59,050 nt of DNA, from positions 1-59,050 of the forward strand of contig JAVBPX010000002.1 in assembly GCA_031549365.1 (NCBI GenBank), written 5' to 3'. This DNA comes from Alphaproteobacteria bacterium. Lineage in GTDB: Bacteria > Pseudomonadota > Alphaproteobacteria > Rs-D84. This document shows positions 1 to 2,477 of this stretch, piece by piece. The notes beneath the pieces were generated by a model. The model made no database searches, had not been told where the DNA came from, and saw only the letters and a program-made list of their open reading frames with translations. Positions within the stretch are counted from its first letter, which is position 1. Every line of letters starts with the position of its first letter. The position numbers and the translations under genes are program-made.

Positions 1-284
1 GCACGAGCTTTTTGAATGGCAACAAGCGCCATTGGATCTACCGTAGGCGCATGCATAGTAGCCGACGAACCGGCAGGGGTGGATGCACCACCCCCATCGG
101 CTGCAAGTAAACGGTTAAAGCCAGCTGCTTCCAAATCTTTGGCATGACGCTGAACTGCCGTATTACTCATTCGTTCTTGAAAAGCCATCTGTTCACGAGA
201 TAACTGTTTATTGGTGGAATTTGCATCTTTCTGAGATAGAAAGTTCAAAACATTTCCACCAGCTGCAGCAATAGCACTCCACAT
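1..284 (-). CDS. Microvirus DNA pilot protein (VP2/H-like), 5' part only
   Basis: Manual translation [72 protein letters not shown]... carries the VP2 signature [11 protein letters not shown]..DL.AAG.N; RBS AAGGAG upstream; runs off the window edge. Confidence 0.88.
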
Positions 285-295
285 AATCAACTCCT

Positions 296-2104
296 TTAAA
301 CTATATGAATGCCTGGACGAGGATTACGAGCAAATACACGGCGACCATGAATGGTATAGCCAATGCAGATTTGCATTTGGTCTTCATCGCGGACAGAGAA
401 TGAACGGTCAGTGGGTTTTTCATAACGCCAAGCAGCAGACAATACAGGTTCGCCTTTGTTATACAAACGAGCCATAGTCCAGTGTAAGAACGTATCTTTC
501 ATATGACCATGTAACGTAGATGGAATATGCATTAATTCCGAATAACGTGGAACGAAACCGAAAGACTCTTCACCATTTGCAGAATTTGGATAGATTTCTA
601 CACGTTTAATATCCTGTTCGCCAACATGTTGAAATATTGGATTTGGGATATCAAAACGAGATGAACGCAAATACATCTTTGGAAGTATATTTTGATACTG
701 AGAACGTGGCATAATATGCATAACAGACATGACATAACCATGTTCAATTACCTTAATATGCAACGGTTGATTTTTACCACCTGTAATACCATGTCCGGCC
801 AAGTTACCTTGTGGGGATGTGCCATCAGTAGACGAAGTTTGCAATACTTCAGAGAACACAATCGGCAAACGGAAAGAGCCATGGAAAATAGGGCGCTGAA
901 TACGTTCGTCAGGAATACGAACACCAAACATTGCCAAAGTAAATTCAACTGCACGAGCACCGGCAGTTTGTAATACTTCACCAAAAGCCTGCATACGAGC
1001 AGCAATACGGAATGCAATAATTGATGCAGCGGTAGTTTGAATACCTTCAATATTACTTAAATCCGCGTATTGGCCTCCCGCTGTATAAGTTGGAGCTGTT
1101 GGCATAATTAAACCTCCTGTCCAGCCAGTAGGCAATCCAGCTATAACCGTATCCGGGGAAGCCTTTAAAATATGCTGATATGTAAAAGCGGGAATACCAG
1201 AGGTAGAAACCGTTTTACACCACATCTTCAAAACAGGATTATCCGCAACATTATCAGATTGTAATTCAATCCACTCTGATACAGGGTAAGCAACGTTCTT
1301 TAAAAACGTCAAACTAAATCCTCGCCACAGCGCAGGATTAGAATTTCCATTACCCAATAGCATCATTTTCTCTTCAGACCACTTAAACACTGTTTTTGTA
1401 ATAACAGGAGCAATCGGAGGAGTTAAATTAACATCACCAGTAATCGGCAACATCGCTTGTGGGCCACGTTGAGTATTGGGCAGGGCACGACCGAAATAAT
1501 CTCTCGACCAAGCTTTTGGAAATATACCATCAACGAGCAAATTATAACCTAATGGGTTACCGGATGCATCTTGAAATTCATATGCACCATTAATGAAATC
1601 TTCATACTTGGTTAAATCCAATTTCTTTACGAAATTCTGATCACGATAGTTTTCATTGATAATATGCATATAGCAAACTATGGGCAGGGCACAAACTTGT
1701 AAACCAGCGCCAACAATGACTTTATTGCCCGTATCAGGGTCAATATAATTGGTTGGCAAGCCTAAGAAATCAGCCAAAGAGCCTGATTCAAAGCCAGTTG
1801 CTGGAATAGTAACGGTTGGCATTAATGGATTTGCCATACCATCTTCGCCACCAGTCAAGAAATCATCCCAAGAAATACCTAATTTATCAAATAATTGACG
1901 CCAAGGCACTTGGTATGTATCAACACCGACAAATACATCATGCATAGTCGGTGCAACTTGTGGTAGAAAACGAGTTAAATTTGCGGCTTCAACACGAAAT
2001 GAATCGCCTGGAAACACTTCGAATAGGGTCGACGGATAAACTAAGCCCATATTATTGGTACTTGTTTTGGTATGGCTCAAATTATGAGCATGACGTTTCA
2101 ACAT
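296..2104 (-). CDS. Microviridae major capsid protein (VP1/F)
   Basis: Motifs [54 protein letters not shown] are typical of microvirus MCPs. ATG at 2104 has AAGGA at normal spacing; the ORF track starts at 2113. Confidence 0.95.
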
Positions 2105-2228
2105 CTTTATCATCCTTTTTTGGTGGATTAACTAAATTTTGTATGGAATAGACTACACCCTCGACAAGAGGGATGACGATAGTTGCATTTTTTAAAATGC
2201 ACAAAACAGCTTTGATTATTTTATTCAT
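2082..2228 (-). CDS. Small phage protein (48 aa), hydrophobic N-half and charged tail
   Basis: [60 protein letters not shown] overlap with the upstream gene and overlap with the VP1 start. Confidence 0.65.
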   Translation of the reverse strand: MNKIIKAVLCILKNATIVIPLVEGVVYSIQNLVNPPKKDDKDVETSCS

Positions 2229-2359
2229 CGTAAAATTCCTCCGCGAGAGCCAAAAGGCGTTTTGCGAGAGACGCGCTTACGGTGATAAGACGAACGACCA
2301 TAAGAACGACGAGAACGACCAGCCGAACGGCGGCCACGATAAGACCTAGAACGAAACAT
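2225..2359 (-). CDS. Microvirus DNA-binding/packaging protein (VP8/J-like, 44 aa)
   Basis: MFRSRSYRGRRSAGRSRRSYGRSSYHRKRVSRKTPFGSRGGILR is Arg/Ser-rich with C-terminal RGGI, like gokushovirus VP8 (RGGIRL); AAGGAGG RBS. Confidence 0.88.
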   Translation of the reverse strand: MFRSRSYRGRRSAGRSRRSYGRSSYHRKRVSRKTPFGSRGGILR

Positions 2360-2366
2360 AATTAAA

Positions 2367-2396
2367 CCTCCTTGTAGTTTTATGTTCACAAGGAGG
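2367..2396 (-). promoter_or_regulatory. 9-bp inverted repeat pairing with the VP8 Shine-Dalgarno
   Basis: CCTCCTTGT-N12-ACAAGGAGG; on the minus strand the 3' arm is the RBS of the first phage gene. Confidence 0.55.
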
Positions 2397-2405
2397 AAAA
2401 GAACA

Positions 2406-2433
2406 AATCGTCATAACGCGTATTATGAATCAG
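2406..2433 (+). other. dif-like XerC/XerD site, inverted copy (phage side)
   Basis: AATCGTCATAA-CGCGTA-TTATGAATCAG has the CATAA-N6-TTATG dif architecture. Confidence 0.6.
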
Positions 2434-2449
2434 TTTAGTTTTATCCTAA

Positions 2450-2477
2450 ACTATTCATAATATACATTATGCGACAT
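2450..2477 (-). other. dif: dif site / prophage att junction (XerC/XerD)
   Basis: Minus strand ATGTCGCATAA-TGTATA-TTATGAATAGT; 18 contiguous bases (CGCATAATGTATATTATG) are identical to E. coli dif. Confidence 0.8.

Follow-up and report, generated by a model that had tools for sequence, protein, structure and literature searches.

Introduction

Microviruses are among the commonest phages of the gut and the ocean, and hosts are known for very few of them. To our knowledge, lysogeny of a microvirus has been shown experimentally only in Escherichia coli, and CTXphi-type filamentous phages are so far the only ones for which Xer integration of folded single-stranded DNA has been demonstrated.

Integration of the EC6098-type enterogokushovirus prophages of Escherichia needs both XerC and XerD (Kirchberger and Ochman 2020, PMC7062461). 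The Bacteroidetes proviruses BMV4-6 carry an extra dif-like site near one end, which was called "reminiscent of CTXphi" (Krupovic and Forterre 2011, PMC3091885). In Alphaproteobacteria, the Ebor prophage (Tainavirinae) of Rhodobacter capsulatus lies between XerCD dif motifs (PMC11980548), and microvirus prophages have also been published for the Amoyvirinae (PMC6030365), as well as for the Occultatumvirinae and Tainavirinae (PMC9753089). Dif-integrated microvirus prophages, alphaproteobacterial ones included, have thus been described before, and the 2011 paper already commented on a CTX-like second site; what is new here is the host group, and the phage and its relatives have a foldable, cholera-phage-like attachment site. 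The first-pass annotation of this DNA, which knew of no such example in such a host, is out of date in view of the Ebor, amoyvirus, tainavirus and occultatumvirus prophages.

We read the locus described below, with a probability of about 0.65, as the complete prophage, present in a single copy, of a small microvirus whose gene set resembles that of gokushoviruses and whose unit genome measures ~4.2 kb; in this reading, the phage has no recombinase of its own and was put into the host dif site by the host XerC/XerD.

Genome context of the prophage

The analysed stretch of 59,050 nucleotides (the window) is the start of contig C6; therefore, the prophage is cut at window base 1, inside the VP2 gene. 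The remainder of the prophage and the second attachment site are located on contig C2, positions 1–141 of which are the reverse complement of window positions 1–141 (100% identity), and this 141-base overlap joins the contigs. The features found in the window are as follows:

1..284, minus strand: 5' part of VP2 (DNA pilot protein); it leaves the window and continues on C2 (L001 142–433), ~191 aa in total
296..2113, minus strand: VP1 major capsid protein, 605 aa, intact (Pfam, PHROG, capsid identity)
2082..2228, minus strand: hydrophobic 48-aa ORF overlapping the VP1 start
2225..2358, minus strand: Arg-rich 44-aa ORF, predicted VP8/J-like DNA-binding protein by position and composition
2406..2433, plus strand: S2, dif-like site of the phage in the opposite orientation to S1 and S3, with the 6-nt spacer CGCGTA and a degenerate XerC arm; it forms the hairpin arm called "B"
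2434..2449, no strand: S2–S1 interval of 16 nt, a 7-nt loop with a 5-bp extension of the stem on either side
2450..2477, minus strand: S1, canonical dif site consisting of the XerC arm, the 6-nt spacer TGTATA and the XerD arm
2645..2665, no strand: bidirectional terminator-like hairpin in the host flank, directly downstream of tadA
2664..3203, minus strand: tadA, the first host gene to the right of the prophage (PF14437/PF00383; best match NF008113 TadA)

The joined element comprises the small Arg-rich ORF, the 48-aa membrane ORF, VP1, VP2, a VP3-like ORF and Rep, in this order in the phage sense. It is preceded by tadA, S1, 16 nt and the inverted S2 and is followed by S3 and gpmI, so that the prophage is located between host tadA and gpmI. 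The direct dif-like sites S1 and S3 flank it, each within a contig that also carries host genes. The first-pass annotation had proposed the left flank as the place to look for Rep and a second site, and both are there: S3 is a direct dif-like site, and the element, both sites included, measures 4,243 bp.

Assembly chimerism, in which a free microvirus genome would have been joined to host contigs via shared dif-like bases, is extremely improbable. The element is indeed split over two contigs of a metagenome bin, and the sole matching run is possibly the source of the assembly itself; however, phage genes, an attachment site and many kilobases of host genes are present on each contig, and the stretch common to S1 and S3 (15 nt) is far below the 141-nt contig overlap. 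A 16,715-nt Logan contig with a depth of 30.9, taken from the k=31 contigs of this one public run, covers window positions 1–4000 with 0 differences and bridges the phage–tadA junction, on which the earlier reading depended. The contig break in VP2 falls at a two-allele bubble with depths of 15.4 and 16.9, which together make up the host depth of 30.9. Additionally, related prophages are situated at dif in other genomes of the order. An 827-nt contig with a depth of 3.8 matches only 34 nt over S1, with 3 differences.

The host genes tadA and rsmD named earlier to the right of the phage keep these names as NCBIfam best matches, both below the curated cut-offs (97.8 bits for tadA against NF008113, with a cut-off of 150). 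To the right of S1, 20 of the 27 ORFs of at least 200 aa are on the minus strand, that is, directed toward the site, as had been noticed, and 7 of 9 ORFs in the left flank are likewise directed toward it. The GC skew is −0.009 over the 14.7 kb of the left flank versus −0.105 in the right flank; the latter is clearly negative, whereas a clean sign switch is absent because the left flank is only 14.7 kb long and near zero. The alpha-type LexA box ascribed to the host is not significant in the window: three matches were found in the window versus 1.07 expected, and 10 of 100 shuffles reach three.

Prophage genes

The VP1 protein matches PF02305 (Phage_F; E = 3.1e-66) and phrog_514 (5.1e-102) and shares 62% identity with the capsid protein of PQ006644 across 99% of its length. 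The open frame of VP2 (window 3–290, minus strand) matches pilot-protein PHROGs, the best match at 2.3e-26, and its C2 part does so at 3.4e-09; the gene probably starts at the ATG at position 284, with AAGGAG 6 nt upstream. Both assignments of the first-pass annotation are thereby borne out. The start of the Arg-rich ORF would be the ATG at 2358, preceded by AAGGAGG, while the ORF list begins it at the GTG at 2389. The VP8-like label given to this ORF is supported by the Arg-rich composition and by the C-terminal 18 residues, 12 of which (67%) are identical to those of the MG945584 small ORF in the corresponding position; it has no family match in Pfam or PHROG. The 48-aa ORF has no Pfam or PHROG match either; by tblastn, it is found at the same position in five related prophages (48–78% identity) and in L116 (54%).

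The supposed lack of VP3 before VP1 is an artefact of the window edge, since a 110-aa VP3-like ORF follows VP2 on C2; it shares 49% identity (E = 2e-31) with the MG945584 protein annotated as similar to VP3. The Rep protein matches PF23343 (1.1e-14) and phrog_942 (2.3e-41). No integrase or recombinase gene was found in the prophage; the PF00589 search of the genome gave three places, on C14 and C15. An XafT-like factor was not found in the three small ORFs of the prophage, which have no Pfam match at E up to 0.01.

With a Phage_F-type single jelly-roll capsid protein, a rolling-circle Rep, a pilot protein and a size within ~4–6 kb, the element belongs to the Microviridae. Its gene set, which includes VP1–VP4 and a small DNA-binding protein and lacks phiX-type D or G genes, is that of the Gokushovirinae, as a comparison with the annotated Chp2 and phiMH2K genomes shows.

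All six prophage ORFs are open and full length in comparison with the relatives (VP1 residues 5–605, Rep residues 1–241), and the prophage GC content of 41.5% is close to the 40% of the host. Both facts speak against a dead or domesticated remnant no longer able to excise or make virions, which we consider very unlikely. It would be consistent with the 7-nt spacer of S3, which may block excision, with the presence of two haplotypes at ~1:1, suggesting vertical inheritance, and with the relative G325, in which the capsid gene is broken into three pieces.

Host Xer machinery and the dif site

The assembly is 97.6% complete as judged by marker genes. Both recombinase-like proteins of the Xer system were found in the host, as expected earlier. 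The XerD-like protein has TIGR02225 as the best match of its ORF (301.8 bits, below the equivalog cut-off) and is also above the NF001399 cut-off; the XerC-like protein has TIGR02224 as the best match of its ORF (300.7 bits, likewise below the equivalog cut-off). An FtsK-gamma domain is encoded as well (91.6 bits).

A genome-wide dif scan detected S1, S2 and S3, two sites inside ORFs and nothing else; consequently, the assembly contains no intergenic dif candidate besides the prophage sites, and no better dif elsewhere. Of the 61 genomes of the host family, 49 contain the 17-base core of S1 with at most one mismatch, usually as a single copy, while the reversed pattern was found in none of them. 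The family dif spacer is 6 nt long, its conservation being partly by construction, since the search pattern itself contained TGTATA. An empty tadA–dif–gpmI site was absent among the 40 nearest genomes, all of which belong to other genera and whose TadA proteins are at most 60% identical. Among them, only the family genome G003 has dif near tadA, and the XerC arm and spacer of this dif equal those of S1. Judging from these other genera, the native spacer of the host itself would be TGTATA.

[quoted passage not shown] The earlier interpretation as an integrase-less microvirus lysogen that exploits Xer at dif agrees with S1 and S3, with the host XerC, XerD and FtsK-gamma, and with the absence of a prophage recombinase.

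Attachment sites and the predicted hairpin

In S1, the XerC arm and spacer are of the host type, and the XerD arm runs on into the phage loop. The 28-mer has 18 contiguous bases in common with the dif of E. coli K12 printed in Table 1 of Carnoy and Roten 2009 (PMC2731167), which confirms the identity reported in the first-pass annotation, and 21 contiguous bases match the reverse complement of the Magnetospirillum entry in the same table. The coordinates given for E. coli dif in PMC7062461 fall inside ubiH in the RefSeq record, and the PMC2731167 sequence was used instead.

S3, at the far end after Rep, has a 7-nt spacer. S1 and S3 share 15 contiguous nucleotides, and their XerD arms are identical. 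The spacer of S3 is complementary to that of S2. The inverted S2 and its hairpin with S1 are absent from the earlier note; a pattern scan placed S2 in the position and orientation of the B sites of the relatives.

The predicted DNA fold of S1 and S2 (window 2398–2482, minus strand) has an energy of −15.6 kcal/mol and a z-score of −5.67, with 0 of 200 shuffles as good. For the reconstructed circular junction, the values are −20.0 kcal/mol (z = −7.4) when site A is the intact S3 and −14.8 kcal/mol (z = −4.5) when site A has the S1 spacer. Double changes were observed in 2 of 25 stem pairs in an alignment of nine sequences that misplaces the row of the window; such weak covariation is expected if protein binding also constrains both arms. 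A promoter scan of the attachment region gave two matches versus 2.3 expected, none of them between S2 and the first phage ORF.

Related free genomes and prophages

The nearest free genomes are PQ006644, PQ006873, PQ007303, MG945584, MG945252, MN379645 and OM869494. These seven faecal relatives are unclassified and circular, have a length of 4.25–4.47 kb and encode capsid proteins with 53–62% identity; the circular gene order of the prophage is that of all seven genomes fetched. Related microvirus capsid genes were detected in 18 of the 328 genomes of the host order, which points to repeated lysogenisation of the host family at dif. A canonical dif-type site is present beside phage genes in 9 of the 11 regions fetched around related capsid genes.

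Directly after Rep, four of the seven free relatives carry an inverted A/B pair. In these four and in four related prophages, the dif-like sites of the pair have spacers of 11–13 versus 6–7 nt, the arms consisting of CATAA, the spacer of 6–7 or 11–13 nt, and TTATG with arm-specific bases. Unequal spacers with a bulge starting in host-spacer bases beside the XerC arm are present in L002, L005, L006, L008, G307, G198, G211 and G287; in OM869494 and the G307 prophage, for example, the spacers are 13 and 7 nt long. Hairpins predicted for eight elements have z-scores from −4.8 to −6.2. The G287 prophage carries the A/B pair though its capsid protein is only ~30% identical. In G307, G198, G211 and G287, a long-spacer hybrid adjoins the loop and B, and Rep is followed by a canonical dif; judging from their sequences, these junctions are as would be expected from CTXphi-like integration of folded single-stranded DNA.

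In L116, G168 and G226, the closest relatives by capsid, the site has the opposite orientation. Scans of IMG/VR (protein and the nine-sequence alignment) returned one locus, the prophage fragment L116, and a scan of genome contigs returned two loci on the same contigs as G168 and G226. The attachment design of the prophage studied here is unique among the 16 elements examined.

In a capsid tree of 25 sequences, this prophage falls in a separate clade of 14 (100/100), while the capsids of Chp2, phiMH2K and SpV4 form a clade (99/99) with two prophages of G002. The phylogeny proposed in the first-pass annotation thus sets this capsid apart from the Gokushovirinae, a provisional placement that is based on three references of the subfamily and long branches. 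The single amoyvirus capsid tested is very distant, with a terminal branch length of 10.

The locus supplies a host for a hostless faecal microvirus clade, namely Enterousia-related gut Alphaproteobacteria with genomes of less than 1 Mb; together with the related prophages, it ties the clade to one family of tiny-genome gut Alphaproteobacteria. The free genomes and prophages form natural before-and-after pairs, which makes the 2011 conjecture of folded-strand, CTXphi-like integration testable.

Possible mechanism of integration

From this anatomy we infer the dependence on Xer, the side of the crossover and the substrate, duplex or folded. The attachment region of the phage would be an inverted dif-like pair consisting of site A, now represented by S3 and the XerD arm of S1, and site B, which corresponds to S2. 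In single-stranded or cruciform DNA, A and B could pair to give a hairpin with a stem resembling dif. The strands would have been exchanged in site A within the 15 nt common to S1 and S3, to the XerD side of the spacer. This would leave the host dif (S1) intact, and the phage site (S3), with its 7-nt spacer, would be intact as well. XerD activated by FtsK could drive such an exchange. Several points stand against this explanation: a 7-nt spacer is not known as a good Xer substrate, G307, G198, G211 and G287 show the opposite, XerC-side crossover, the site is flipped in L116, G168 and G226, the host spacer is deduced from other genera, and the skew change is modest on the short left flank.

If the CTXphi scheme applied here directly, the folded plus strand would undergo XerC exchange at the XerC side of site A and be fixed by replication, and the present spacers of S1 and S3 (6 and 7 nt) would result from later change or an unusual host dif. 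This scheme predicts the observed topology of S1, loop, inverted S2, genes and S3, and its complete product is seen in G307, G198, G211 and G287; the foldable hairpins of the eight elements also agree with it. The attP1 and attP2 of CTXphi have spacers of 12 and 7 nt (PMC3089051, Table II). However, under this scheme S1 should contain the phage spacer and S3 that of the host, and the opposite was found: S1 contains the TGTATA of the family, and the spacer of S3 matches S2. The loop adjoins the canonical site, and the site with the 7-nt spacer is at the opposite end of the prophage, which is not the arrangement of an XerC-side crossover. In addition, although an inverted dif-like pair folding into a dif-like stem is present (S1/S3 with S2), unequal spacers with a bulge are not, the spacers being 7 and 6 nt; site A has no TGT beside the XerC arm to stabilise an XerC exchange, and one insertion and three substitutions would be required to convert TGTATA into the S3 spacer. 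We therefore regard this scheme as improbable for this prophage.

Possibly, S2 and the hairpin are unrelated to Xer and serve as a complementary-strand origin, a terminator or a means of promoter masking, with integration proceeding from a duplex attP. Minus-strand priming in microviruses depends on hairpins (PMC9865509, section 3.8), a dif site is in part a palindrome by itself, and Kirchberger and Ochman model duplex integration, the word "hairpin" occurring 0 times in the main text (PMC7062461). Nevertheless, we consider this unlikely, given that both arms are full dif-like sites located directly after Rep in four free genomes and four prophages, that the crossover occurs at the long-spacer site A and not at the properly spaced B, and that the same unequal-spacer geometry is that of the proven CTXphi substrate.

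As a theoretical alternative, XerD cleavage of the B strand in a plus-strand hairpin would place an inverted hybrid ahead of the first gene and an A–loop–hybrid arrangement after Rep, and does not fit this locus. Such a product resembles the arrangement in G168, G226 and the right-hand prophage of G002.

Returning to the preferred XerD-side exchange, such a junction would provide this phage clade with a second route. This is relevant to how the design of an Xer site picks the recombinase and to whether the prophage can leave again. More generally, and with less than even odds, Xer integration of folded single-stranded DNA may also be regular in icosahedral microviruses. A portable inverted attP module with unequal spacers would then occur in at least two distant lineages that lysogenise one family of tiny-genome gut Alphaproteobacteria, with variants switched from the XerC to the XerD side (this prophage) or flipped (G168, G226 and L116).

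Comparison with known systems

The enterogokushoviruses resemble this prophage in size (4.3–4.7 kb), in the lack of an integrase and in their location at dif, where an unchanged bacterial dif and a phage dif-motif flank them (PMC7062461). Their host is an enterobacterium, whereas here it is a gut alphaproteobacterium. The variable part of their motif is the spacer and XerD arm (PMC7062461), while here it is the spacer and XerC arm, which suggests a crossover on the other side. Their integration is modelled with duplex DNA, and no inverted second site is described in the available text (PMC7062461). The capsid of our prophage lies outside the Gokushovirinae clade of the capsid tree, which is represented by the three references Chp2, phiMH2K and SpV4.

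CTXphi is likewise a phage with single-stranded DNA and without a recombinase, in which two inverted dif-like sites pair into a dif-like stem; its spacers are 12 and 7 nt, and those of the relatives of this prophage are 11–13 and 6–7 nt. When integrated, CTXphi is bounded on one side by a non-functional hybrid, the loop and the inverted site, and on the other side by a functional dif (PMC3089051). [quoted passage not shown] CTXphi is an inovirus with arms ~90 nt apart (PMC3089051), whereas these phages are microviruses with arms 3–16 nt apart. The CTX scheme fits the relatives but not the element itself, with its spacers of 7 and 6 nt and its XerD-side crossover.

TLCphi shares with our prophage an XerD-first reaction and a location between an intact attP and an intact dif (PMC9226527), as far as the junction anatomy and the family dif indicate for the latter. 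In TLCphi, the XerD arm of attP is degenerate, and the phage encodes its own activator, XafT (PMC9226527); in our prophage, the XerD arm does not differ from that of the host site, and neither a degenerate XerD arm nor a phage-encoded XerD activator was found in the element.

The Alpavirinae proviruses BMV1-7 are also integrase-less microviruses with flanking dif-like repeats, but they have Bacteroidetes hosts and belong to another capsid lineage. The accessible text of that paper contains no hairpin (the word occurs 0 times), no analysis of unequal spacers and no comparison with free genomes (Krupovic and Forterre 2011, PMC3091885). A literature search, supplements aside, found no microvirus or Microviridae paper with "forked hairpin" or with attP, CTX, hairpin and XerC together; a human-virome inovirus preprint names Microviridae once and lacks XerC.

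Ebor, set beside this prophage by description only, and the Amoyvirinae, Occultatumvirinae and Tainavirinae are, like it, temperate microviruses of Alphaproteobacteria. Their published hosts are Rhodobacterales, Hyphomicrobiales and Sphingomonadales, whereas the host here belongs to a gut order with reduced genomes. The seven free faecal microviruses are circular genomes without an assigned host, and they have the same gene order as this prophage.

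Prophage genes and left flank

The host bin comprises 911 kb in 15 contigs (97.6% complete, 0.67% contaminated), and the window (bases 1–59,050 of contig C6) begins within a phage gene. Reverse-complemented, bases 1–141 of contig C2 match window 1–141 exactly; the missing left flank is therefore C2 in reverse orientation, the fetched part of which is designated L001. All phage genes are on the minus strand in the window and on the plus strand in L001. In the phage sense, their order is as follows:

Window 2358–2225, minus: Arg-rich ORF, 44 aa
Window 2228–2082, minus: hydrophobic ORF, 48 aa
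Window 2113–296, minus: VP1, 605 aa (Pfam Phage_F, 3.1e-66; phrog_514, 5.1e-102)
Window 284–1, minus, continuing to L001 433, plus: VP2, pilot protein (PHROG pilot families)
L001 558–890, plus: 110-aa ORF (49% identity, E 2e-31, to the "similar to VP3" ORF of the free microvirus MG945584)
L001 1120–1848, plus: Rep, 242 aa (PF23343, 1.1e-14; phrog_942, 2.3e-41)

The first-pass annotation described a layout lacking VP3. Since the VP3-like ORF is found on L001, the window edge accounts for this apparent absence. The prophage encodes no tyrosine recombinase, the three PF00589 matches of the genome being on contigs C14 and C15, and no XafT-like ORF was detected in it. The third integrase-like ORF (362 aa, C15:47362–50688, L012 880–1968) has a weak Phage_integrase match of 25.1 bits and is unrelated to the prophage.

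The phage–tadA junction was checked against one public run containing the stretch, in the form of Logan contigs and possibly the source of the assembly itself. A 16,715-nt Logan contig with a depth of 30.9 matches window 1–4000 with 0 differences and so bridges the junction, which speaks against the chimeric assembly considered earlier. Window base 1 marks the end of this contig; from there, two alternatives continue (450 nt, depth 15.4; 397 nt, depth 16.9), so that the break between C6 and C2 is a bubble of two alleles within VP2. Together, these alternatives add up to the host depth, which favours a single prophage copy per genome, present as two haplotypes, and makes a large pool of free phage DNA less likely. 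The contigs indicate that the haplotypes occur at about 1:1 and differ in length by about 53 nt, either in the 3' part of VP2 or in the spacer that follows (window 1–30, L001 about 142–560). Elsewhere in this bin, several contigs have the same 40 nt at their ends (C1/C8, C9/C10, C5/C13, C3/C12, C14/C15), with (CA)n runs closing C14 and C15; repeat elements probably break the assembly there.

Attachment sites and the host dif

The phage-sense strand from window 2477 down to 2406 reads ATGTCGCATAATGTATATTATGAATAGTTTAGGATAAAACTAAACTGATTCATAATACGCGTTATGACGATT. The dif-like sites of the prophage are the following:

First 28 bases of this sequence: S1, canonical dif (11-nt XerC arm, spacer TGTATA, 11-nt XerD arm)
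Next 16 bases: S1–S2 interval, short stem extension and 7-nt loop
Last 28 bases: S2, inverted dif-like site (6-nt spacer, degenerate XerC arm)
L001 1879–1907, 30 bases past the Rep stop, orientation as S1: S3, GCACCGCATAACGCCATATTATGAATAGT

The second att site sought at the other end is S3, which is in direct orientation to S1, with 4,243 bp between their outer ends. Its XerC arm differs from that of S1 and its spacer has 7 nt (CGCCATA); the XerD arm is identical. The gpmI gene starts 87 bases past S3, and tadA ends 187 bases beyond S1; the Rep–S3–gpmI junction is covered by contig C2 alone.

With the E. coli K12 dif given in Carnoy & Roten 2009 (PMC2731167), S1 has 18 contiguous bases in common, as had been noticed from the sequence; with the reverse complement of the Magnetospirillum entry in their table it has 21. 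A better dif elsewhere, one of the reservations of the first-pass annotation, was not found: a whole-assembly scan for the frame CATAA, 6–7 nt, TTATG returned only S1, S2, S3 and two sites inside ORFs, and the assembly has no other 28-mer within 7 substitutions of S1. Among 61 sampled genomes of the host family, 49 contain a 17-base core of S1 with at most one mismatch, mostly once each, as do 41 of the 43 high-quality ones; the reversed control pattern occurs in 0 of 61. The full dif in 30 fetched loci is close to AAGGCGCATAATGTATATTATGTATAGT, and its spacer is 6 nt in all 30, which is partly enforced by the search pattern. In G003, another genome of the host family, the XerC arm and spacer are exactly those of S1, and the dif is also near tadA. 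The host recombinases that were sought are present as an XerC-like and an XerD-like protein, each of these families being the best NCBIfam match of its ORF; the host also encodes an FtsK carrying the gamma domain.

The reported transcription of host genes toward the site holds for 20 of the 27 right-hand ORFs of at least 200 aa, and to the left 7 of 9 point to it as well. As for the GC-skew switch, the values are −0.105 on the right and close to zero on the left, where the flank is short: a shift, though without a clear reversal of sign. The local skew is dominated by a 2,039-aa ORF (window 5166–11285, minus) with long low-complexity repeats and a beta-barrel-like C-terminal part, which suggests an autotransporter-type surface protein.

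Relatives and host range

The nearest capsid relatives are unclassified faecal microviruses of 4.25–4.47 kb, 53–62% identical and with the same gene order. In a capsid tree of 25 sequences, which has few references and some long branches, the prophage falls in a clade of 14 (support 100/100), separate from the clade of Chp2, phiMH2K and SpV4 (99/99) and at a great distance from both phiX174 and an amoyvirus. Capsid matches were found in 18 of 328 genomes of the host order, including the present one; among them are five close relatives (G168, G226, G307, G198, G211) and one decayed copy (G325). Enterousia belongs to this gut order, Rs-D84, with member genomes below 1 Mb (PMC12306168); phages are not mentioned in that paper.

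Other arrangements at dif can be noted in the host family. Two different microvirus prophages flank one dif, one on each side, in G002 (region L110); G301 (L111) has two copies 4,698 bp apart, and in G015 (L109) a prophage lies between two dif sites 4,341 bp apart. Tandem arrays directly adjoin the prophages of G168 (L103 7933–8363, 67 nt × 6.7) and G226 (L106 173–429, 46 nt × 5.6), each unit having an XerD-arm-like piece and a small hairpin; these arrays may be scars of repeated integration.

A foldable att module in related microviruses

An inverted dif-like pair directly follows Rep in four of seven free genomes (PQ006644, MG945584, MG945252, OM869494). On the sense strand, site A has a spacer of 11–13 nt starting with TGT or TTT; it is followed by a loop of 4–9 nt and site B, with a spacer of 6–7 nt. 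The same pair is present in four prophages (G307, G198, G211 and G287, the last with a capsid about 30% identical). All eight folded sequences (the four free genomes, G307, G198, G211 and the junction of this window) form hairpins with z between −6.2 and −4.8, a stability reached by 0 of 200 shuffles. Beside the XerC arm, the surplus bases of the spacer form a bulge, and the consensus fold of nine sequences has 25 pairs, with compensatory changes in 2. This is the geometry of the attP(+) hairpin of CTXphi, in which the attP1 and attP2 spacers are 12 and 7 nt (PMC3089051, Table II).

In the four prophages, the upstream junction starts with the host XerC arm and continues with the long spacer and XerD arm of the phage, then the loop and B; a canonical dif follows Rep. 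These are the junctions predicted by CTX-type integration. The module of G287 (L113 8345–8408) is nearly the same as that of MG945584 (L005 824–887), with 11- and 6-nt spacers. These two belong to different capsid clades, MG945584 to that of the present prophage, which suggests that the att module moves between lineages.

Crossover in this prophage

The topology of this prophage is that of its relatives: direct site, loop, inverted site, genes, direct site. However, unlike in the four related prophages, it is the canonical 6-nt spacer that adjoins the loop (S1), and the unusual 7-nt one follows Rep (S3). The S3 spacer is complementary to that of S2. For the rebuilt circular junction, the predicted folding energy is −20.0 kcal/mol (z −7.4) when intact S3 serves as site A, compared with −14.8 kcal/mol (z −4.5) when the S1 spacer is placed there. 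Because of these results and the family-wide TGTATA spacer, S1 would be the host dif and S3 the phage site, both left unaltered. In that case, the exchange at site A would have occurred within their 15 common bases, on the XerD side of the spacer. Site A of this prophage matches the host spacer in the last three bases only, whereas that of the relatives matches it in the first three or more; this base pairing agrees with XerD-side exchange. The substrate could have been duplex DNA, a cruciform or a folded strand. Cleavage by XerD of the B strand in a plus-strand hairpin was rejected for this locus, as the layout it predicts differs.

In the closest capsid relatives (L116, G168, G226 and the free genomes PQ006873 and PQ007303), the site has the opposite orientation; these fit yet another scheme.

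Comparison with known systems

Integrase-less microvirus prophages at dif are known in Escherichia, where the need for XerC and XerD was proven experimentally (PMC7062461), and were proposed in Bacteroidetes (PMC3091885). One is also reported in the alphaproteobacterium Rhodobacter capsulatus (PMC11980548), so the claim that no such example exists in this kind of host does not stand, and, given these three cases, the kind of element is already known. Nor is the CTX-like idea new for microviruses, as Krupovic & Forterre 2011 called an extra dif-like site in BMV4-6 "reminiscent of CTXphi" (PMC3091885). A literature search of main texts found no description of a hairpin attP in a microvirus. Three points are new: the group of hosts; a host for a clade of faecal microviruses; and, from comparison, evidence of a putative CTX-like folded att module in microviruses, of which this element would be an XerD-side variant. 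A parallel to this variant is TLCphi, whose XerD-first route leaves attP and dif intact and can be driven by FtsK alone if the XerD arm is dif-like (PMC9226527); here, too, the prophage would combine an intact dif with an intact attP, and its XerD arm does not differ from the host one.
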